Shown: positions 859 to 61,832, counted from the stretch's first letter. The stretch: DNA of 64,000 nucleotides from an uncultured Eubacteriales bacterium (GCA_949840345.1 CATKWX010000008.1:1801-65800), one strand, 5' to 3'. Notes: generated by a model from the sequence alone, not told the origin. Numbers and translations are program-made.

Positions 859-3264
859 TTTCACTACAATATTATAAATTTTATTTTTTACATATATTTC
901 TTTTACAATTGTTTTTCCTTCTAATAGTGTTGCTACTTCTTTTTTTACTATTTCTTTTACAGCTGATTCTTCTGCGTCTAATGGAATTTTTACTGTTGCT
1001 TTTACTTTTCCATTGAATTGAACAGGAATTTCTATTTCATCATCAATTGTTTTTGCTTCATCATATTTTGGCCAAGTAGAATCTGATATTGTATGACCTG
1101 TGTTTAGTAATTCATATAATTCCTCTGTTATATGTGGTGCAAATGGATTTAGCAATTCTAAGAAAGTTTTAAATTCTGCTTTGTTTATTCTTTTTAGCTT
1201 ATAAAATTCATTAATCATTGTCATAAATGTTGCAATAGAAGTATTAAACTTCATTTCCTCAATATCGCTAGAAACTTTTTTAATAGCCTTATGCATCATT
1301 TTTTCAAATTCAGGAGAGTAAGAATCTCCATCTACTAATATTTCTTGTAGGTTCCAAACTCTTTCTAGGAATTTATAGCATCCTCTAATACTATCCATAG
1401 ACCAAGGTGCTGATTGATCAAATGGTCCTATAAACATTTCATAAACTCTAAAGGTATCTGCACCGAATTCATTAACTATATCGTCTGGATTTACAACATT
1501 ACCCCTAGATTTAGACATCTTTTCTCCATTACTTCCTAAAATCATACCATGTGATGTACGTTTTTGATAAGGTTCTTTTGTTGGAACTACACCTATATCG
1601 TATAAAAATTTATGCCAAAATCTTGAATATAGTAAGTGTAGAGTAGTGTGCTCCATACCACCGTTATACCAATCTACAGGAGACCAATATTCTAGTGCTT
1701 CCTTTGAAGCTAATGCGTTATCATTATGTGGGTCCATATAACGTAAGAAATACCAAGAAGATCCAGCCCATTGAGGCATTGTATCTGTTTCTCTTTTAGC
1801 ACTTCCACCACAGTGTGGACAAGTTGTGTTAATCCAATCTGTTTGTTTTGCTAAAGGAGATTCTCCATTTTCACCTGGTTCAAAGTCTTTTATATCTGGT
1901 AAAACAAGAGGTAATTCTTTTTCATCTAATGACACCCAACCACAATTTTGGCAATATACCATTGGAATTGGTTCACCCCAGTATCTTTGGCGAGAAAATA
2001 CCCAGTCACGAAGTTTGTAGTTTACTTTTCTTTTTGCAATTCCTTTTTCTTCTAGATAGTTTATACAAGTTTTAATAGCTTCTTTTACTCCTAATCCATT
2101 TAAGAATCCAGAATTAATCATTGTTCCAGAATATACATCTGTATGAGGTTTTTCCTGTACATTTTCGCCACCTGATACAACTTCTATTATTGGTAAATTA
2201 AATTTCTTTGCAAAATCCCAGTCTCTATCGTCATGGGCAGGAACAGCCATAATAGCACCAGTTCCATATGTAATTAATACATAATCTGAAATCCAAATAG
2301 GAATTTCTTTTCCTGTTAATGGATTTATTGCCGTTATTCCTTTTAATTCTACACCAGTTTTTTCTTTAGAAAGTTCAGCTCTTTCAAAATCTGATTTTAA
2401 TTTTGCTTGATTTTGATATTCCTTTACGTCATTTAAATTAGTAATTTTATCTTCAAATTTTTGAATCATAGGATGCTCTGGTGCGATAACCATATAAGTT
2501 GCACCAAATAAAGTGTCAGGTCTTGTTGTATATACAGTAAGTTCCTCTCCTTCAATTCCTGCAAGTTTAAACTTAACTTCAGCACCTTCGCTTCTACCAA
2601 TCCAATTTTTTTGTTGTAATTTAATTTTTTCTAAGAAATCTATATCGTCTAAATCGTTTATAAGTCTTTCAGCATATTCTGTAATTTTTAGCATCCATTG
2701 ACTTTTTTCCTTTTGAACAACAGGACTTCCGCATCTTTCGCAAACACCATTAACAACTTCTTCGTTTGCTAAACCTACTTTGCAACCTGTACAATAGTTT
2801 ATAGGCATAGTTGTTTTATATGCTAAACCGTGTTTAAATAATTGAATAAAAATCCATTGAGTCCATTTATAATAATTTGGGTCTGTTGTATTTATTTCAC
2901 GAGACCAGTCAAAAGAAAATCCTAGAGCCTTTAATTGCTCTCTAAAATGATCTACATTTTGTTTTGTAATTATACTTGGATGAACTTTATTTTTTATAGC
3001 GTAGTTTTCAGCTGGAAGACCGAAAGCATCAAATCCAATAGGGTATAAAACGTTAAATCCTTCTAATCTTTTCTTTCTTGCAATGATATCAAGTGCTGTA
3101 TAGCTACGAGGATGACCAACGTGGAGTCCTTGTCCTGATGGATATGGAAATTCTATTAATCCATACCACTTCTTCATAGAATAATCATTTTTTGCATTAA
3201 AAGTTCCTTCTTTTTCCCATTTTTGTTGCCATTTTTTTTCTATCTCTTTGAAATTATAAGACAT
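856..3264 (-). CDS. leuS: Leucyl-tRNA synthetase (class I aaRS; HVGH and KMSKS motifs).
   Basis: 802 aa ORF with 'HVGHPRSY' and 'KMSKSRGN' motifs and the LeuS editing-domain architecture. Confidence 0.95.
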
Positions 3265-3420
3265 AAGGCATCCTCCTTGTTTTAAAAAATAATGTAAACA
3301 TTATACTACAAAAATTAAATATAGTCTAGGGAAATGGGCAAATTAATTATTCTTTTAAAAAACATATTGCAAATACTTTAGGAGTGCAGGCTAACGCCCT
3401 AATGTACATATCTAATCAAA

Positions 3421-3462
3421 AAGAGATAGTAATTCGCAGTTACTATCTCTTTTTTTTGCTAT
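3421..3462 (-). terminator. Stem-loop with flanking A/T runs in the leuS 5' leader; a possible attenuator.
   Basis: AAAAAGAGATAGTAA-loop-TTACTATCTCTTTTTTTT, about 160 nt upstream of the leuS ATG on the minus strand. A T-box identity was not confirmed. Confidence 0.35.
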
Positions 3463-3608
3463 ATGACTTAACGCAGATTTAATCAAAGTCATTTCTAATC
3501 TAAGTATATTGTACTATTTTAAATTTAATTTGTCAATATGTTTACCTAAAAATTCCCTTGCAAATTGAAAATATATCATATATAATTTTGCTAAATGAGG
3601 TAGAGATT

Positions 3609-5663
3609 ATGCAAAAGAGTTTGTTGATTACGGAAAAGCCGAGTGTTGCAATGGAGTTTGCAAAGGTGTTGAAAATAAATACAACTAGAAAAGATGGATT
3701 TCTAGAGTCTGACAATTGGGTAGTTACTTGGTGTGTAGGTCATTTAGTTACAATGTCTTATCCAGAAAAGTATGACGAGAATTTAAAGTTTTGGAGATTG
3801 GATACGTTGCCTTTTATTCCAAGTGAATTTAAGTATGAAGTAATACCTGCCGTAGAAAAACAGTTTAATGTAGTTAAGGGATTATTAACAAGAGAAGATA
3901 TTTCTAAAATTTATGTATGTACTGACTCTGGTCGTGAAGGAGAATATATATATAGATTAGTAGACCAAATGGTTGGAGTTACTGGCAAAGAGAAAAGGCG
4001 TGTATGGATAGATTCTCAAACAGAAGAGGCGATTTTAAATGGAATAAAAGACGCAAAAGATTTATCTGAATATGATAGTATTTCAGCTTCTGCATATTTA
4101 AGAGCAAAAGAGGATTACTTAATAGGAATAAATTTTTCAAGGCTTCTTTCAATTATATATGGAAGAAGAGTTGCAAAGCAAATAAATGAGGATAAAGCTT
4201 CCATATCTGTTGGTAGAGTTATGACTTGCGTATTAGGTATGGTGGTATCAAGGGAAAGAGAAATTAGAAATTTTGTAAAAACAAAATATTATAAAATAAT
4301 AGGTGAATTTGGAAGCGACACATCTTCTTTTAAAGCAGAATGGAAGGTAACAGAAAAATCTAGTAAATATAATTCAATAGAATTATACAACGAAACAGGG
4401 TTTAAAAAAGAAGAAGATGCAAAGAAATTTATTTTATCATTAGCAGGTGTAGAAAATGATAACACTGTAGGGAACGAGACCAACGTCGTTCCTAAAAAGA
4501 ACGCTATTGTAACAGAAGTTAAAAAAAGCAAACAAAAAGAAAATCCACCACTACTTTTTAATCTTGCAGAATTACAAAACGAGTGCACAAAAAAGTTCAA
4601 AATAAAACCAGATGAAACATTAGAGGTTGTACAAAATTTATATGAGAAAAAATTAGTAACATATCCAAGAACTGATGCGAGAGTTTTGTCAACAGCAGTA
4701 GCAAAGGAAATTACAAAAAACTTAAATGGAATAAGCAGAGGGTTTCAAAACGAAGAAATAAAAACAATAATAAACAAAATGGTTAGTGAAAAATATTCAA
4801 CAAATCTAATAAAAACAAAATATGTAAATGATAGCAAAATAACAGACCACTATGCTATAATTCCAACAGGACAAGGGTATGAAAATTTTGATAAATTGCC
4901 TGAGCTACATAAGAATATATACATAAACATAGTAAAAAGATTTTTAAGCATATTTTATCCACCAGCAGAATTTAATAAAGTATCTGTAACATTAGAGGTA
5001 GAAAACGAGCAATTTAGTACTAGTGGTAAAGTTTGTACAAATTTGGGATATTTAGAAATATTAAAACAACCTAAAAATACTGTAGAGGAACAGACTAACG
5101 GTGCTTCACAAAATTCAGACGATACCGCAGGGAACGACGCCCCCGTCGTTCCGTTAAATACAGAAACACAAGAAGAAAACAATTTAGACATTTTAAATAC
5201 ATTAAAAAAAGGTCAAGAAATAAATGTAGTAAATTACGAGTTAAAGGAATCTGAAACTACACCACCTACAAGGTACAATTCTGGTTCTATAATTCTAGCA
5301 ATGGAAAACGCAGGAAAACTAATAGAAGATGACGAATTAAGAGAACAAATAAAAGGATGTGGAATTGGAACAAGTGCAACAAGGGCTGAAATTATAAAGA
5401 AGTTGGAAAGAATAAAATATATAGATATAAATAGTAAAACACAAATTATAACTCCAACAAACAAAGGAGAAATAATATTTGATGTAGTAAACTCATCAAT
5501 GCCAGATATGTTAAACCCAAAGCTAACTGCAAGTTGGGAAAAAGGACTAGAAATGGTCGCAAATAAAGAAATTCAGTCAGACGAGTTTATGGGAAAACTA
5601 GAAAACTACATAAAAACAAAAATAAATAAATTGGTTATCCCAGACGGAAGATTATCTATGTAG
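3609..5663 (+). CDS. topB: DNA topoisomerase III (type IA, Toprim domain). It carries two in-frame insertions of GC-rich palindromic repeat elements (~4461-4500 and ~5123-5153).
   Basis: N-terminal 'LLITEKPSVA...WCVGHL' Toprim/topoIA motifs. The ORF track starts at 3558, but the ATG with an RBS is at 3609. Confidence 0.85.
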   Translation: MQKSLLITEKPSVAMEFAKVLKINTTRKDGFLESDNWVVTWCVGHLVTMSYPEKYDENLKFWRLDTLPFIPSEFKYEVIPAVEKQFNVVKGLLTREDISKIYVCTDSGREGEYIYRLVDQMVGVTGKEKRRVWIDSQTEEAILNGIKDAKDLSEYDSISASAYLRAKEDYLIGINFSRLLSIIYGRRVAKQINEDKASISVGRVMTCVLGMVVSREREIRNFVKTKYYKIIGEFGSDTSSFKAEWKVTEKSSKYNSIELYNETGFKKEEDAKKFILSLAGVENDNTVGNETNVVPKKNAIVTEVKKSKQKENPPLLFNLAELQNECTKKFKIKPDETLEVVQNLYEKKLVTYPRTDARVLSTAVAKEITKNLNGISRGFQNEEIKTIINKMVSEKYSTNLIKTKYVNDSKITDHYAIIPTGQGYENFDKLPELHKNIYINIVKRFLSIFYPPAEFNKVSVTLEVENEQFSTSGKVCTNLGYLEILKQPKNTVEEQTNGASQNSDDTAGNDAPVVPLNTETQEENNLDILNTLKKGQEINVVNYELKESETTPPTRYNSGSIILAMENAGKLIEDDELREQIKGCGIGTSATRAEIIKKLERIKYIDINSKTQIITPTNKGEIIFDVVNSSMPDMLNPKLTASWEKGLEMVANKEIQSDEFMGKLENYIKTKINKLVIPDGRLSM
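4461..4500 (+). repeat. In-frame palindromic element (AACACTGTAGGGAACGAGACCAACGTCGTTCC) inside topB, translated as ...NTVGNETNVVPKK...
   Basis: Same head and arms as the intergenic copies at 47233 and 52071; GC-rich island in an AT-rich gene. Confidence 0.6.
5123..5153 (+). repeat. In-frame palindromic element (GCAGGGAACGACGCCCCCGTCGTTCCG) inside topB, translated as ...TAGNDAPVVPL...
   Basis: GGAACGAC...GTCGTTCC arms identical to the family. Confidence 0.55.
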
Positions 5664-53470: not shown

Positions 53471-54652
53471 ATGTCAATAAGAGAACGTTTAAGTGGAAAT
53501 GAAGCAGCAGCAATAGCTATGAAACAAATAAATCCAGATGTAGTAGCAGCATTTCCAATAACACCATCAACAGAAATACCACAATATTTTTCAAGTTTCG
53601 TAAGCAATGGAGCGGTGGATACAGAATTTGTAGCAGTAGAAAGTGAACATAGTGCAATGAGTGCTTGTATCGGAGCAGAGGCAGCAGGAGCTAGAGCAAT
53701 GACAGCGACTTCATCTAATGGTTTATCTTTAATGTGGGAAATGATATATATAGCTTCAAGTTTAAGATTACCTATAGTAATGTCTCTAGTAAATAGAGCA
53801 GTATCAGGACCTCTAAACATACATAATGACCATTCAGATGCAATGGGAGTTAGAGATTCTGGTTGGATACAATTATTTTCAGAAAATAATCAAGAAGCAT
53901 ATGACAATTTAGTTATGGCACATAGAATAGCAGAACATAAAGATGTATTATTGCCATTAATGGTATGTCAAGATGGATTTATAACATCACACTCAATAGA
54001 AAATATAGAATTAATAGAAGATGATCTAGTAAAGAAATTTGTTGGAACATATAAACCAGAGCATTACTTATTAAATGACAAAGAGCCTATGGCAGTTGGA
54101 CCTTTAGATTTACAAGCATATTTATTTGAACATAAAAGACAACAAGCTGAGGCTATGAGAAATGCAAAAAAAGTTGTATTAGAAGTTTCAAAAGAATTCG
54201 AAAAAATGACAGGAAGAAAATATGGTTTCTTTGAAGAATACAAATTAGAAGATGCAGAAATTGCAATAGTTTGTATGAACTCAACAGCCGGAACTACAAA
54301 GTATACAGTAGATAAATTAAGAGAAAAAGGAATTAAAGCTGGGTTATTAAAAATAAGAATGTTTAGACCATTTCCAACAGAAGAAGTTGCAAAAGCATTA
54401 TCACACTTAAAAGCAGTTGCAGTACTTGATAAAGCAGATTCTTTAAATGGGGCTGGTGGAGCTCTATTTGAAGATGTAATATCTAGTATGTATGTATCAA
54501 ACATACATGTACCAACTGTAAATTATGTATATGGTATTGGTGGAAGAGATACAAAAGCAGACGATATAGAAAAAGTGTACAATGATTTAAGTGAAATTGT
54601 AAAAACAGGAAATATAAATAATCCATACAGATATTTAGGAGTAAGAGAATAA
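53471..54652 (+). CDS. porA: 2-oxoacid:ferredoxin oxidoreductase alpha subunit.
   Basis: POR alpha family; ATG with RBS at 53471 (the track start 53408 is inside the repeat). Confidence 0.8.
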   Translation: MSIRERLSGNEAAAIAMKQINPDVVAAFPITPSTEIPQYFSSFVSNGAVDTEFVAVESEHSAMSACIGAEAAGARAMTATSSNGLSLMWEMIYIASSLRLPIVMSLVNRAVSGPLNIHNDHSDAMGVRDSGWIQLFSENNQEAYDNLVMAHRIAEHKDVLLPLMVCQDGFITSHSIENIELIEDDLVKKFVGTYKPEHYLLNDKEPMAVGPLDLQAYLFEHKRQQAEAMRNAKKVVLEVSKEFEKMTGRKYGFFEEYKLEDAEIAIVCMNSTAGTTKYTVDKLREKGIKAGLLKIRMFRPFPTEEVAKALSHLKAVAVLDKADSLNGAGGALFEDVISSMYVSNIHVPTVNYVYGIGGRDTKADDIEKVYNDLSEIVKTGNINNPYRYLGVRE

Positions 54653-54668
54653 TAATAAATGGTTAAAA

Positions 54669-54720
54669 TGTAGGGGCACCGTTTGTGGGAATACCCGTTA
54701 GGTTACGACACCACTGTGCC
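54669..54720 (+). repeat. Type-D palindromic element.
   Basis: GTAGGGGCACCGTTTGTGGGAATACCCGTTAGGTTACGACACCACTGTGCCC. Confidence 0.6.
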
Positions 54721-54746
54721 CAGGATAAAAGGAGGAGAAAAATAAA

Positions 54747-56297: not shown

Positions 56298-57530
56298 ATG
56301 GATATAATTGATATTGCAAACAAAATAAATAATGCAGGGGGAAGACTATATTTAGTTGGTGGGGCTTTAAGAGATGAAGTAATGGGAAAAGAAAAACATG
56401 ATGAAGATTATTGTGTAACTGGCTTATCCTCAGAAGAATTTTTGAATCTTTTTCCTATGGCACATACAAGAGGAAAAAGCTTCGAGGTATATGATATAGA
56501 AGGCAAAGAATTTGCTTTAGCAAGAATTGATAGAAAATCTGGATTAGGACATAAGGAATTTGAAATAACAACAGATAAGTCTATAACAATTGAGCAAGAT
56601 TTAGAAAGAAGAGATATAACTGTAAATTCAATTGCAAAGGATGTTTTAACAGGAGAAATTATAGACCCATTTGGAGGAATAAAAGATATAAAAAATAAAA
56701 TAATAAAAGCTACATCAAAAGCATTTGCGGAAGACCCATTAAGAGTATATAGAGTTGCTAGGTTTGCAGCTCAGCTAGAGTTTAATATAGATATACACAC
56801 ATTAGAGTTAATGAGTAGTTTAAAAAATGAATTAAATACATTATCAAAAGAAAGGGTATTCGAAGAATTTAAAAAAGCAATGTCACAAAATAAGCCATCA
56901 ATATTTTTTGAAATTTTAAGGAAAGCAAATGTGTTAGATGTGCATTTTATAGAAATATATAATTTAATTGGAGCCTTACAACCGATACAATATCATCCAG
57001 AAGGAGACGCATATAACCATACAATGATTGTACTAGATGAAATTTCTAAAAATACAAAAGACTTAAAAGTAAGATTTGCAGGTTTAGTACACGATTTAGG
57101 AAAAGGGCTAACTCCGAAAGAAAAATATCCTCATCATTATGGTCACGATAAAAATGGAGTAAAACTAGTAGGAAATTTGGGAAATAGAATTTGTGTACCA
57201 AATGCATGGATTAAGTGTGGGAAGGTTTCGGCAGACGAACATATGAGAGGTGGAATTTTTCATAAAATGAAGCCATCAAGACAAGTTCAATTTCTAGAAA
57301 AAGTATCAAAATCATATTTAGGGTTAGATGGGTTGCAATTAGTTGTAAACGCAGATAAAGGTACGAGAGGAGATGCAAATGAATTCGCTAATTTAGGTAA
57401 AAAAATGTTACAAGAAATAGATGGAGAATATATTTTTAAAAAATATGGTAAGCTAGACGGATTAGAAATAAAGGAAAAATTATATGAAAATAGAGTTAGA
57501 TGGATAATTTCACAAAAAAACTTGACATAA
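56298..57530 (+). CDS. cca: CCA-adding tRNA nucleotidyltransferase (Pol-beta NT domain plus HD domain).
   Basis: 'GGRLYLVGGALRDEVMG' and downstream HD motifs. Confidence 0.8.
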   Translation: MDIIDIANKINNAGGRLYLVGGALRDEVMGKEKHDEDYCVTGLSSEEFLNLFPMAHTRGKSFEVYDIEGKEFALARIDRKSGLGHKEFEITTDKSITIEQDLERRDITVNSIAKDVLTGEIIDPFGGIKDIKNKIIKATSKAFAEDPLRVYRVARFAAQLEFNIDIHTLELMSSLKNELNTLSKERVFEEFKKAMSQNKPSIFFEILRKANVLDVHFIEIYNLIGALQPIQYHPEGDAYNHTMIVLDEISKNTKDLKVRFAGLVHDLGKGLTPKEKYPHHYGHDKNGVKLVGNLGNRICVPNAWIKCGKVSADEHMRGGIFHKMKPSRQVQFLEKVSKSYLGLDGLQLVVNADKGTRGDANEFANLGKKMLQEIDGEYIFKKYGKLDGLEIKEKLYENRVRWIISQKNLT

Positions 57531-57544
57531 TCCAAAAAATGATG

Positions 57545-57790
57545 TATAATTTAATCGTACTTGGGAAACTGAGTGAAAAATCATGAAGGGAGGATCAGGT
57601 TATGAACTGTAGAGCACCGAATATAGGAATTTGTTTGAACATTAATTAAACACCGACGCTGCGGCCATAGAAGGTCTAATATGAAACGGTACATGACTGG
57701 TTTTACCTAGAGTATTTATTTGTTGACAAATCTATTGGCGACAAAATTTACTCTCCCCCATTTTATGGGGGGCTTTTTTTTTTATGATTT
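57545..57790 (+). ncRNA. Candidate small RNA or leader: an extended -10 (TGATGTATAAT), a 15-codon mini-ORF with a strong RBS, and a strong terminator (CTCCCCCATTTTATGGGGGGCTTTTTTTTTT).
   Basis: Promoter-to-terminator unit of about 230 nt between cca and minD with no substantial ORF. Confidence 0.3.
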
Positions 57791-57869: not shown

Positions 57870-58664
57870 ATGGGAGAAGTAATAGTAATCACATCAGGAA
57901 AAGGTGGCGTAGGAAAAACAACAACAACAGCTAATTTAGGAGCAGCCCTAGCATTAGAAGGGAAAAAAGTAGTGTTAATAGACACAGATATCGGTCTTAG
58001 AAACCTAGACGTAGTTATGGGATTAGAAAATAGAATAGTATACGATATAGTAGATGTAGTAGAAGAAAAGTGTAAATTGAGACAAGCCTTAATAAAAGAT
58101 AAAAGATTTGATGAGCTTTTCTTATTACCAGCAGCACAAACAAAAGATAAAAGTGCTGTAAATGAAGTTCAAATGAGAGAGTTAGTTAATAAATTAAAAG
58201 AAGAATTCGATTACATATTAATAGACTGCCCTGCAGGAATAGAACAAGGATTTAAAAATGCTATAGCTGGTGCAACTAGAGCAATAGTTGTTACAACAGC
58301 AGAAATATCTGCAATAAGAGATGCAGACAGAATTATAGGTTTATTAGAATCATCAGAAATAAAAAATCCAGAATTAATAGTTAATAGATTGAGACCATCA
58401 ATGGTAAAAAAAGGTGAAATGATGGATGTTGATGATATCATAGATTTATTATCAATAGACTTAATAGGAGTTGTACCAGATGATGAACACATAATAAGCC
58501 AAACCAATAAAGGAGAGCCAGTAATACAAAATAAACACGCACCTTCAGGAAAAGCATATTTAGAAATAGCAAAAAGAGTATTAGGTGAAAATATCGATAT
58601 AACTATACCTGGCAAAGAAAATTCGTTCATAGCGAAAATAAAAGCGTTTTTTGCAAGAAAATAA
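57870..58664 (+). CDS. minD: Septum site-determining ATPase MinD.
   Basis: Deviant Walker A 'SGKGGVGKTT'. Confidence 0.9.
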   Translation: MGEVIVITSGKGGVGKTTTTANLGAALALEGKKVVLIDTDIGLRNLDVVMGLENRIVYDIVDVVEEKCKLRQALIKDKRFDELFLLPAAQTKDKSAVNEVQMRELVNKLKEEFDYILIDCPAGIEQGFKNAIAGATRAIVVTTAEISAIRDADRIIGLLESSEIKNPELIVNRLRPSMVKKGEMMDVDDIIDLLSIDLIGVVPDDEHIISQTNKGEPVIQNKHAPSGKAYLEIAKRVLGENIDITIPGKENSFIAKIKAFFARK

Positions 58665-58692: not shown

Positions 58693-59358
58693 ATGTTTGA
58701 GAATATTGCTAATTTTTTTAGAAAATTAATGAAATCAGAAAAAAAAGAGCAAGGGTCAAGAGATGCAGCAAAAGAAAGATTACACCTAGTATTAATGCAA
58801 GATAGAGCAAATGTGTCAGCTGACTTTTTAGAACTAATGAAACAAGAAATAATTGATGTTATAAAAAAATATATAGAAGTAGATGAAAAAGAAATAGATG
58901 TTAGATTAACAAACAAGGAAAATGAAGATGGAACAAATGGAGCACCTGCGTTATATGCCAATATACCAATTTTAAATATTAGAAATGAAATGAAAAAAGA
59001 AGTTATGACAGAAAAGCAAGTTGAAAATACAGAAACCGAAAACAGTGAAGACGTAGGGACTTTAACTTCTAATTCGGAAGAAATGCAAGAAAATCAAAGT
59101 AAGGAAGAAACAAAACAAGAAAACATAGATGTAGAGGTAAGCATTGCTTGTCCGGAAGAAATACAAGAAAATCAAAATAATGGAGAAATGAAACAAGACA
59201 ATGCAGATGTAGAGACAAGCATTGCTCGTCCAGAAGAAATGCAAGAAAATCAAAATAATGAAGAAACTAAACAAGAAAATATTGAAAACATAGAAGAACA
59301 AAGTATTGAAACTGTTAATGTACAACCAGAAGTAGTTAATCAAACAAATAATATATAA
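58693..59358 (+). CDS. minE: MinE topological specificity factor with an unusual ~130 aa acidic C-terminal extension. The extension is built from ~81 bp tandem repeats that include palindromic-element-like sequence.
   Basis: The MinE core occupies the N-terminal ~90 aa. Repeats 'EEMQENQ..EETKQENIDVEVSIACPEE' x3 correspond to DNA 'GATGTAGAGGTAAGCATTGCTTGTCCGGAAG' and 'GATGTAGAGACAAGCATTGCTCGTCCAGAAG'. Confidence 0.7.
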   Translation: MFENIANFFRKLMKSEKKEQGSRDAAKERLHLVLMQDRANVSADFLELMKQEIIDVIKKYIEVDEKEIDVRLTNKENEDGTNGAPALYANIPILNIRNEMKKEVMTEKQVENTETENSEDVGTLTSNSEEMQENQSKEETKQENIDVEVSIACPEEIQENQNNGEMKQDNADVETSIARPEEMQENQNNEETKQENIENIEEQSIETVNVQPEVVNQTNNI

Positions 59359-59449: not shown

Positions 59450-59530
59450 ATGCGGGCGGACTTAGAGGCCCGCCACTACAAAAAACATATTGCAAACTTT
59501 GTAGGGGTCAATGCTCACATTGACCCGTTT
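59450..59530 (+). repeat. Two palindromic elements (GCGGGCGGACTTAGAGGCCCGCC; CATATTGCAAACTTTGTAGGGGTCAATGCTCACATTGACCC) in the rodA 5' region.
   Basis: Family members. Confidence 0.55.
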
Positions 59531-59574: not shown

Positions 59575-60676
59575 ATGAATAAAAGAAATTTAAAAAATAC
59601 AGAATGGAGCATATTAATAATAAGTTTGGTACTATTCATAATAGGAATAGTTGCACTATATTCTTGCACCCAAGCTACTGAATTTGACGAAATGAAAAAG
59701 CAAATAATATGGTTTGTAGTAAGCATACCAATATTAATTGTATTTTTTGTTGTAGATTATAATTTAATAAGCAAAGCTTCATACGTAGCATATGGTATAT
59801 TTATTCTTTTGTTAGTAGGTGTTTTATTTACACCAGAAATAAATGGAGCAAGAAGTTGGTTTAACATTGGAGCATTTTCACTTCAACCTGGAGAGTTTGC
59901 AAAAGTGTTTGTTGTAATACTGTTTTCCACAATAATATGCAAATTTCAAGAAAAAGGAAAAAATGAAATAAATAAACCTTGGAAATTAATCTTATCATTG
60001 ATGGTTGTAATATTACCAACATTGTTAATTATAATACAGCCGGATATAGGAACAGCAGCTGCATTTATTGTATCTACAATTTTCATTTTATTTGTAGCAG
60101 GAATAGATAAAAAATATATAATAGTAACTTGTGCTTTAATAGTGATATTAGTACCATTAATATATATGTTTGTATTGCCAGATCACGCAAAAACTAGAAT
60201 AGACGTATTCTTAAATCCTAATTTAGACCCTAGAGGTTCTGGATACAATGTAATTCAGTCTAAATTAGCAGTTGGCGCAGGAAAAGTATTTGGGATGGGA
60301 ATTTTAAAAGGAAACCAAACACAATTGGGATTTTTGTATCCTAAAACTACAGACTTTATATTTGCAGTAGTTGGAGAAGAAATGGGATTTATAATTTCAG
60401 CTGCAATAGTTATATTATATGTGCTATTACTAACTAAAGCCATATATATTGCAAAAACTGCTAAAGACGATTTAGGCTCATATGTAGCCACAGGAATAGT
60501 TCGGAATACTGTTTTTTCATGTATTAGAAAATATAGGCATGACCGTAGGACTATTGCCAATTACAGGAGTTCCATTGCCTTTTATAAGTTATGGAGGAAG
60601 TTCACTTATAACAAATTTTATATGCATAGGTATATTGATGAATATTAGTTCTAGACGCCAAAAAACAATATTTTAG
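59575..60676 (+). pseudogene. rodA: FtsW/RodA-family peptidoglycan glycosyltransferase. The frame is broken at an in-frame CGG (~60502); the +1 frame gives the conserved '...LPITGVPLPFISYGGSSLITNF...' C-terminus.
   Basis: The track ORF 59563-60648 ends in nonsense; the +1 frame after 'GTT CGG' reads 'GILFFHVLENIGMTVGLLPITGVPLPFISYGGSS'. Confidence 0.7.
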
Positions 60677-60856
60677 TAGTTTGAAAAATAATTAGCATAT
60701 TGTGTCGTTATTTAAAACTAGAAAATCCTCGATGTACAAATGTACACCTCCGGTATTTCTAGTTTTAAATGCCTAGCACTATACTAATTCTTTTTCAAAC
60801 TATTAAAAAAATAATCAGCATATTGCAAACATTGTAGAAAGGAATTTGAACACACA

Positions 60857-61832
60857 ATGTATATACATCCATTAAAAATAGGAAATGTAGAATTAAATAA
60901 CAATATATTGTTAGCACCAATGGCAGGTATAACAGATAAATCCTTTAGAATTATGTGCGAAGAAAAAAGTAATCCACGGACTTGAGTTTACAGAAATGGT
61001 AAGTTCAAAGGCAATATATTACAAAGATGAGAAAACACAAAAATTAGTAAATACAGATAATGAAAAAACTAAAGTAGCTATACAGATATTCGGAAGTGAG
61101 CCAGAGATAATGGCATATTCTGCAAAAGAATTAGAATGTAAGGCAAGCATTATAGATATAAATATGGGATGCCCAGCACCTAAAGTAGTAAAAAATGGAG
61201 ATGGAAGTAAGCTATTATTAAATTTAGAACTAGTATTTGAAATAGTAAGTAAAGTAGTTAATGCAGTGAATGTTCCAGTAACAGTTAAAATGAGAAAGGG
61301 TTGGAACAATACAAATATTGTTGCAGTTGAAGCTGCTAAAATTATAGAAAAAGCAGGTGCAAGTGCTATAACAATACATGGAAGAACGAGGGAGGAGTAT
61401 TATTCAGGGAAAGTAGATTTAGACATAATAAAAAAAGTTAAAGAAGCAGTAAATATACCTGTAATAGGAAATGGAGATATAAAGAATGCTAAAGATGCTT
61501 TAAAAATGTTTGAATATACAAATGTAGATGGAATAATGATTGGAAGAGCAACTTTAGGTAATCCTTGGGTAATAGGGCAGATAAAAGAAGAGTTAAATGG
61601 AAATGTGGCAAATTTGCCTAGCAATGATGAAAAACTTAAAACAATAAAAGAGCATATAGATTTGGAAATAGCAGAAAAAGGAGAGTACATAGGAATAAGG
61701 GAAATGAGAAAGCACATTTCTTGGTATATAAAAAATTTAAAAGATTCAAGTAAAGTAAGAGAAAAAATTAATATATTAGAATCAAAACAAGAAGTTATAG
61801 ATTGTCTAAATGAATATTTTAAAACATTGTAA
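60857..61832 (+). pseudogene. dusB: tRNA-dihydrouridine synthase (DusB-like). The frame is broken at an in-frame CGG (~60977) about 40 codons from the start.
   Basis: N-terminus 'MYIHPLKIGNVELNNNILLAPMAGITDKSFRIMCEEKSNP' then CGG; the +1 frame 'GLEFTEMVSSKAIYY...' continues into the track ORF 60996-61832. Confidence 0.7.

Follow-up and report, generated by a model that had tools for sequence, protein, structure and literature searches.

In the current study, computational analysis of minE from an uncultured Eubacteriales bacterium revealed that the acidic C-terminal tail of the encoded cell-division protein contains three tandem units, parts of which can be traced to a palindromic element that is also dispersed between genes. 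The best overall explanation, and in our estimation a probable one, is that a REP of the GTAG type came to reside in frame within a tail that was already present, that a unit comprising this element and adjoining tail sequence was triplicated, and that the copies have since undergone neutral, AT-biased decay. The gene lies in a stretch of 64,000 nucleotides (GCA_949840345.1 CATKWX010000008.1:1801-65800), which was analysed as a whole and is referred to below as the window; coordinates are collected in Table 1.

The minE gene, its product and its surroundings

The minE product matches PF03776 at 82.7 bits (cut-off 25) over profile positions 1-67 of 68, and the gene starts at 58693 directly after the end of minD at 58664, the adjacency to minD that characterises a MinE gene. 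An AlphaFold model, built with 43 homologues, displays an N-terminal helix, a long helix and a beta-sheet, with pLDDT values of 72-86 over roughly the first 100 residues, while values below 50 were obtained for the tail at aa 107-146 and 148-211. The composition of this tail is 27% D+E and 7% K+R, an example peptide from its predicted translation being VETSIARPEEMQENQNNEETK. According to the model, MinE is composed of a canonical core followed by a tail of approximately 120 (121) aa that is predicted to be disordered, and the acidic extension beyond the MinE core which had been noticed in a sequence-only reading of the window is thereby confirmed (ORF of 221 aa, Pfam core at aa 22-93). The exact protein is present on 14 public contigs, and the genome has a GC content of 28.6%.

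The gene upstream of minD specifies a PolyA_pol/CCA-type enzyme, and minC was absent from the position directly upstream of minD, the immediate upstream gene being the one inspected. Approximately 235 bp within 57508-57787, upstream of minD, are present in the window and missing from the independent assembly L081, one of four sister strains (L081-L084) with 97-99% identical DNA; this stretch begins with TTGACA...TATAAT, ends in a hairpin plus T-run (CCCCCATTTTATGGGGGGCTTTTTTTTTT), has no match in Rfam and looks like a small transcription unit. In rodA, the reading frame breaks near 60497-60500 (region 60490-60680) and the conserved C-terminal SEDS motif is found in the +1 frame (ORF 60539-60676). 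The break seems real rather than a sequencing error because L081 shows substitutions and no indel in this region, the gene being called there at the identical truncated length of 357 aa. The dus gene (tRNA-dihydrouridine synthase, 60857-61832) is interrupted, leaving an N-terminal ORF of 42 aa and a further one of 278 aa, and a similar split (57 aa plus 278 aa) exists in L081-L084.

Table 1. Features of minE and of REP elements; positions refer to the window unless another locus is named.
Feature	Position	Strand	Details
minD	57870..58664	+	264 aa, immediately 5' of minE; Pfam AAA_31, CbiA, ParA, MipZ
minE	58693..59358	+	ORF of 221 aa including tail
MinE Pfam domain PF03776, canonical core	58756..58971	+	aa 22-93; 82.7 bits
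Acidic C-terminal tail, predicted disordered	59011..59355	+	aa 107-221; from pLDDT, composition, dN/dS
Tandem unit 1	59053..59130	+	REP slot 59053-59075 scrambled (GTAGGGACTTTAACTTCTAATTC, VGTLTSNS), then 55-bp spacer
Tandem unit 2	59131..59208	+	REP-derived 59131-59153 (GTAGAGGTAAGCATTGCTTGTCC, VEVSIACP, 19/23), then spacer
Tandem unit 3	59209..59286	+	REP-derived 59209-59231 (GTAGAGACAAGCATTGCTCGTCC, VETSIARP, 20/23), then spacer
Older C-terminal tail end (...VVNQTNNI), not REP-derived	59287..59355	+	common to relatives without recognisable REP units
Intergenic REP-like element just 3' of minE	59452..59479	-	GTAGTGGCGGGCCTCTAAGTCCGCCCGC; conserved in L081-L084
Intergenic GTAG REP 3' of minE	59501..59527	+	GTAGGGGTCAATGCTCACATTGACCCG
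Reference E-type REP	52114..52136	+	exact 23-mer GTAGGGGCGAGCATTGCTCGTCC, intergenic
Reference E-type REP	34117..34139	-	exact 23-mer GTAGGGGCGAGCATTGCTCGTCC, intergenic
REP in topoisomerase III-like ORF 3558-5663	4467-4493		GTAGGGAACGAGACCAACGTCGTTCCT, VGNETNVVP; frame GTA-GGG
REP in topoisomerase III-like ORF 3558-5663	5127-5153		mutated head; GCAGGGAACGACGCCCCCGTCGTTCCG, AGNDAPVVP
Three in-frame REPs in ORF 39152-40711	39785, 40409, 40568		frame GTA-GGG
Four in-frame REPs in dnaX of L198 (31.8% GC)	3141-4970 (L198, gene)		three families; frame GTA-GGG
REP in minE tail of L001			VGNETDVVS, from GTAGGGAACGAGACCGACGTCGTTTCG; frame GTA-GGG
REP in minE tail of L090			VGADESHRP; frame GTA-GGG
REPs in minE tail of L052			two GTAGGGGC heads; frame GTA-GGG

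The dispersed palindrome and its copies within minE

The palindrome, named a type-E element in the sequence-only reading, is indeed present as an exact 23-mer at the two places reported there (52114 and 34118), both of which are intergenic, and it is a genuine GTAG-type REP, the canonical copy consisting of GTAG followed by an 8-bp stem with a 3-nt loop (-12.2 kcal/mol). In the sequence flanking the 139 copies examined, only a TT upstream and a G downstream are conserved, and the mobile unit is therefore approximately 24-26 bp in size. A scan of the whole window against Rfam at gathering thresholds matched no family; the REPs are therefore not a curated RNA family.

REPs of the window were listed by their GTAGGG heads; an automatic hairpin filter proved too strict and missed most elements. 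Twenty-eight such heads were counted, against approximately six expected from base composition (a rough estimate), with 27 of the 28 on the plus strand, which also carries 43 of 48 putative genes, and most of the heads precede a GC-rich stem-loop of varying sequence. Many are themselves preceded by a conserved AAAAACATATTGCAAAC-NTT (e.g. 34140-34160 and 59480-59500), which suggests composite elements. Comparison of the window with L081 (97.4% identity) identified several intergenic REP-containing blocks in one strain only, among them 54644-54732 of the window and 579 bp that follow window position 62071 in L081 only, so that gains or losses of these elements must be recent.

Outside the window, at least 139 copies of the exact 23-mer were found in at least 120 metagenome contigs ranging from 28% to 67% GC, often as inverted pairs (L092-L211). 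In L103 (58.5% GC), a RAYT-like ORF (978-1511), detected by tblastn with an L183 ORF that matches Pfam Y1_Tnp, lies between E-type REPs at 965-987 (+) and 1526-1548 (-), and a gene bracketed by inverted REPs is the hallmark by which REP-associated tyrosine transposases are defined (PMC2817692). In the related low-GC species L001, minE is preceded at a distance of 2.3 kb by a further RAYT-like gene, flanked by another REP type. A search of the 64-kb window with the L183 protein returned no RAYT gene. The occurrence of an identical REP in contigs of such different GC content suggests either horizontal REP-RAYT movement or extreme conservation.

Within minE, the element is read as GTA GGG GCG AGC ATT GCT CGT CC, i.e. 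VGASIARP. In the window, the closest copy is that of unit 3, and matches of its quality were obtained in none of 100 dinucleotide-preserving shuffles; of the slot in unit 1, nothing but the GTAGGG head and the terminal CGG has been retained. A derivative of the palindrome had been proposed for every unit, which holds for units 2 and 3 but not for unit 1, scrambled as it is in this strain. Considerably better copies are preserved in relatives: minE of the related species L085 (protein P0003) contains the exact 23-mer in frame (VGASIARPEE), unit 1 of the sister strains L081-L084 reads GTAGGGGAGAGCATTGCTCGTCC (22/23, VGESIARPEE), and the first unit of L086 minE likewise carries the 23-mer at 22/23 in frame (VGESIARPEE). 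Further copies with 3-7 mismatches occur in the minE genes of L081-L086, the frame being identical throughout, and the REP-derived codons are GC-rich (GGG, GCG, CGT, CCG) against a genome of 28.6% GC.

Low-complexity tails do yield short recurrent motifs, and the two window units that carry the motif do so with 3-4 mismatches, such that an acidic tail might by chance or convergence hold VxxSIAxP with no relationship to the palindrome. This notion is scarcely credible, as matches with three or fewer mismatches were absent from the 100 shuffles, the 23/23 identity in L085 includes synonymous positions, and other REP families are translated likewise in other genes. Exact identity at synonymous positions together with GC-rich codons in a genome of low GC content therefore rules out convergence at the peptide level, the exact nucleotide match in L085 being what refutes it. 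Judged at the nucleotide level, the tail motif demonstrably originates from the dispersed palindrome, as the sequence-only reading had maintained.

Tandem growth, age and decay of the tail

Tandem Repeats Finder reported a run at 59075-59279 with a period of 78, 2.6 copies and 85% matches; if the count begins at the first palindrome slot, the array contains three complete units of 78 bp (26 codons), each comprising a 23-bp slot and a 55-bp spacer. Its units follow one another head to tail and are divisible by three in length, such that the array constitutes a coding tandem repeat. The earlier description of three tandem repeats is correct in number but not in period, given there as approximately 81 bp; 81 bp is the period in the related loci L085 and L087, owing to a 3-bp indel. 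The number and spacing of units vary between species, while no variation in whole-unit copy number was found among the seven alleles of the 90% cluster, in which the differences consist of point changes, a single indel of 3 aa and an N-terminus that is called shorter in one case.

The spacers decide how the array arose. They are 82-87% identical in pairwise comparison, as opposed to 42% on average and 62% at most in composition-matched shuffles, and with a spacing of exactly 78 bp this requires that REP and spacer were duplicated as one unit. Were the tail an insertion hot spot that had received three REPs independently, with no single insertion followed by duplication, flanking sequence would not have been duplicated, and no conserved flanks are found around the 139 dispersed copies. 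Repeated insertion does happen, given that different REP families occupy the minE tails of L001, L090 and L052, and the best-preserved copy of L086 occupies another site, immediately behind the core; nevertheless, we regard three separate insertions as quite improbable for the array of the window. Tandem triplication, and thus the amplification that had been proposed, is demonstrated by the alignment of the units.

The scrambled slot of unit 1 is an allelic feature. It reads GTAGGG-ACTTTAACTTCTAATT-CGG (VGTLTSNS) in the window and GTAGGG-GAGAGCATTGCTCGTC-CGG in the sister strains, with 12 of 16 bases differing and with length and frame unchanged, the patch forming part of an 80-bp stretch (59045-59126) that accounts for 18 of the 23 differences in minE between window and sister strains. 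Both alleles are real and frequent in public assemblies, VG[T/A]LTSNS being recorded on 37 contigs and VGESIARP on six. Decay by simple point mutation does not explain this patch. It may be a short tract acquired by recombination from a lineage whose copy is old and decayed (L089, for comparison, has EGTSVAST at this position), or, alternatively, the sister allele may have been re-converted by a fresh REP; a donor was sought in the window (three or fewer mismatches) and in 211 loci, and none was found.

Concerning the age of the tail, all of the best 120 MinE homologues listed are tailed, with total lengths of 127-309 aa (median 190) and an average of 34% D+E in their tails, and the motif V[GE]xS[IV]xxP occurs in approximately 11 of these 120, those nearest to the window. 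Across 80 species-representative genomes of uncultured gut Clostridia, which include Clostridium sp. CAG:575 and Candidatus Scatovivens, minE is always tailed (129-455 aa in total). An nhmmer profile of the REP-derived segments found no trace in 78 of the 80, strong matches being confined to L001; a marginal match in L002 minE (E = 0.057, VEVNVNHTEE) may represent a fully decayed unit. The flanks of the representatives contain 0-3 GTAGGG heads per 1.5-6 kb (mostly approximately 5.7 kb), or five in L001, and the species of the window has 13 per 10 kb.

The REP units are preceded by the core and followed by a C-terminal end (...VVNQTNNI), which relatives without recognisable units have in common with the window and which shares only 13% identity with the REP slot. 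Since tails are near-universal without a trace of REP, and since this end is shared, the REP would have entered a pre-existing acidic tail; the comparison of relatives in this way establishes the acidic tail as older than the REP. The element supplies just 24 of each 78 bp, namely the non-acidic VGASIARP part, and the acidity evidently stems from older tail sequence rather than from the REP. The proposal that the whole extension is repeat-derived does not survive this comparison, relatives being tailed (127-455 aa, approximately 34% D+E) and REP segments being limited to the immediate clade of the window. Relatives having the same extension with no likeness to the palindrome would argue against a palindromic origin of the extension; those found do so weakly, in that their acidic extension lacks the palindrome but differs from that of the window. 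A literature search on MinE C-terminal extensions in Clostridia returned nothing relevant.

The REPs that are located immediately 3' of minE today (59452-59479 and 59501-59527), and the frequent abutment of GTAG REPs on ORF 3' ends (PMC3733652), could be taken to mean that loss of a stop codon and read-through into REP-bearing intergenic DNA created the entire tail. This is very improbable, as acidic tails are found in 80 of 80 related species, nearly all of them without REPs, and as the REP units precede a conserved, older C-terminal end.

Once in minE, the copies have visibly eroded. Relative to the canonical REP, 47 of 62 substitutions are GC to AT (counts that are not phylogenetically independent), and predicted hairpin energy has risen from -12.2 to between -0.4 and -7.5 kcal/mol; the window copies have kept GTAG, their stems having decayed to -4.2 to -4.5 kcal/mol. 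The core yields dN/dS values of 0.01-0.07, as compared with 0.34-0.66 for the tail, the latter lowered by the protein-guided alignment. The REP-derived peptide varies freely (VEVSIACP, VEETIDHP, VGATIGSP and others), such that frame and general composition are kept and sequence is not. Decay of the minE copies is demonstrated by these substitution and folding data, and the pattern fits tolerated, slowly eroding inserts rather than a conserved RNA hairpin or peptide motif.

The sequence-only reading had gone further in proposing exaptation, i.e. that the repeat had gained a function, of which we find no indication given the loss of the hairpin, the AT-directed substitutions and the relaxed dN/dS of the tail. 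A function could be envisaged in the form of an mRNA hairpin influencing minE/rodA expression or slowing translation, or of a peptide motif tuning the interaction of MinE with MinD or the membrane. Consistent with such a role are the frame kept across species, a tail dN/dS below 1, the single frame shared by in-frame REPs of minE, the topoisomerase III-like gene and dnaX, the nearly intact first copy in several species, and the known capacity of REPs to stabilise mRNA in other bacteria (PMC3733652). Hairpin stability nevertheless collapses in most copies, substitutions follow the AT bias of the genome, the commoner allele in the species of the window has abolished the first hairpin altogether, the peptide is free to vary, and the closest relatives do without REP segments; we consider functional exaptation unlikely, and infer that the REP insert has no function. 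Some constraint is apparent from the tail dN/dS below 1 and the kept frame, and a function for the tail as a whole is possible.

The history that we favour, that of an in-frame REP in an older tail followed by triplication and neutral decay, would begin with a canonical MinE core bearing a fast-evolving acidic tail of predicted disorder, ancestral to a broad clade. The genome of the sub-lineage to which the window belongs is colonised by GTAG-type, RAYT/Y1-associated REP hairpin elements, one of which, of approximately 24 bp (GTAGGGGCGAGCATTGCTCGTCCG), would have joined the coding sequence of the tail in the frame GTA-GGG, adding VGASIARP. A 78-bp unit consisting of this REP and 54-55 bp of older tail sequence would have been triplicated in tandem, likely by replication slippage or unequal recombination, after which the copies would have drifted under AT-biased mutation, losing the hairpin and retaining the reading frame. 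The insert was presumably tolerated on account of an unstructured and weakly constrained tail. The order of events and the slippage mechanism are deduced indirectly, and as no insertion-free allele was recovered at the exact site, we infer the original insertion and its boundaries.

In-frame REPs in other genes and comparison with known systems

REPs inside reading frames are not restricted to minE (Table 1). The topoisomerase III-like ORF, which matches Pfam Topoisom_bac plus Toprim, contains two, that at 4467 bordering on a segment without alignment to solved topoisomerase III. In dnaX of L198 (DNA polymerase III tau/gamma), the four elements read VGVGVPDDP, VGASIARP twice (the exact E-type 23-mer) and VGVGFHAHP, and three of the four follow the last Pfam-matched stretch, in a K/E-rich segment. 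The ORF with REPs at 39785, 40409 and 40568 is the second of three consecutive ORFs on the same strand (38002-39150, 39152-40711 and 40680-42119), the last of which has a glucoamylase-like domain, and 38002-42119 looks like one large gene split by frame breaks.

One of the three possible frames, xxG-TAG, is closed by a stop codon. The open frame xGT-AGG was seen only in the RAYT-like Y1 transposase ORF of L183 (approximately 500-968), which has an E-type REP inside (CRGEHCSS) and may be a disrupted gene. The approximately 14 in-frame REPs, not all of them independent, use the other open frame, GTA-GGG; for metagenome sequences, only low-GC loci (L198 dnaX and L183) entered these counts, high-GC contigs with their chance long frames being excluded. 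Such one-frame use is unlikely if both open frames are used equally, and peptide tolerance or an insertion bias may possibly be responsible. It hints at selection or mechanistic bias, which a purely neutral account does not predict. A more far-reaching view, which we hold to be rather doubtful, is that in this lineage of gut Clostridia with small genomes, REPs are a systematic, frame-compatible source of new coding sequence (invariably GTA-GGG...CCN, V-G-...-P) for disordered linkers and tails of the essential proteins MinE, topoisomerase III and DnaX, with tandem amplification driving the growth and turnover of such tails and thereby tuning the length and charge of that of MinE.

The minE case is a clean and datable one in which non-coding selfish DNA has turned into protein sequence within a gene essential for cell division: the element of origin, its copy in frame and the tandem growth that followed can all still be read. 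It indicates that disordered tails and linkers are where in-frame REP inserts survive, and it calls for caution in annotation, as a V-G-x...P peptide written in GC-rich codons is, in low-GC gut MAGs, the footprint of a REP and not a conserved protein motif. By itself, the finding adds nothing new on the working of the Min system.

Di Nocera, De Gregorio and Rocco (2013, BMC Genomics 14:522; PMC3733652) described GTAG REPs that are fully contained in the ORFs of known proteins, where they are translated, are often found near termini or in linkers, are sometimes clustered (up to 82 aa) and are probably neutral, being in flexible regions; many of their cases concern DNA replication and repair genes, and the authors drew a parallel to Rickettsia RPEs. 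The present elements resemble those in being short, GTAG-headed, GC-rich palindromes that are normally extragenic and RAYT-associated, the minE copies departing from the extragenic location of a GTAG REP by their position inside an ORF, and the topoisomerase III-like and dnaX cases parallel the replication and repair genes of that study. They differ in host (low-GC gut Clostridia), in gene (minE), in the triplication of a REP unit and in the presence of several families in one tail, all in one frame. Firmicutes or Clostridia are mentioned nowhere in the text of PMC3733652, a later survey states that described REP families are mostly proteobacterial (PMC6006769), and our literature search for RAYT/REP in Firmicutes or Clostridia found nothing specific; the present data extend intragenic GTAG REPs from this mostly proteobacterial record to uncultured gut Clostridia.

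The Rickettsia palindromic elements are in-frame selfish palindromes whose host products remain functional, in a small AT-rich genome (PMC3733652, refs 13, 14). RPE-1 inserts are longer (PMC3733652) than the REP of approximately 24-27 bp in minE, which moreover belongs to a Clostridia MAG lineage and is not an RPE, the likeness being one of behaviour only, i.e. in-frame insertion. A resemblance also exists to REP/REPIN-RAYT systems (Nunvar 2010, PMC2817692; Bertels and Rainey 2011, PMC3116915), with which the elements share the GTAG head and hairpin, a high copy number, inverted REPs on either side of a Y1 transposase gene (L103, L001) and inverted pairs in many metagenome contigs. Unlike the inverted doublets of REPIN-RAYT systems, most elements of the window stand alone and point in one direction (27 of 28 heads on the plus strand), and the exact 23-mer in contigs of 28%-67% GC contrasts with systems described as mostly vertically inherited within lineages.

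MinE of the E. coli type has approximately 88 aa. The protein under study is like canonical MinE in its N-terminal amphipathic helix, long helix and beta-sheet core and in the position of its gene after minD, and unlike model MinE proteins in its acidic, 121-aa tail predicted to be disordered. Intragenic GTAG REPs are thus already known as such; what is new in the present case is the host group, the gene minE, the clear triplication of a REP unit and the recurrent hits of multiple families in one and the same tail.
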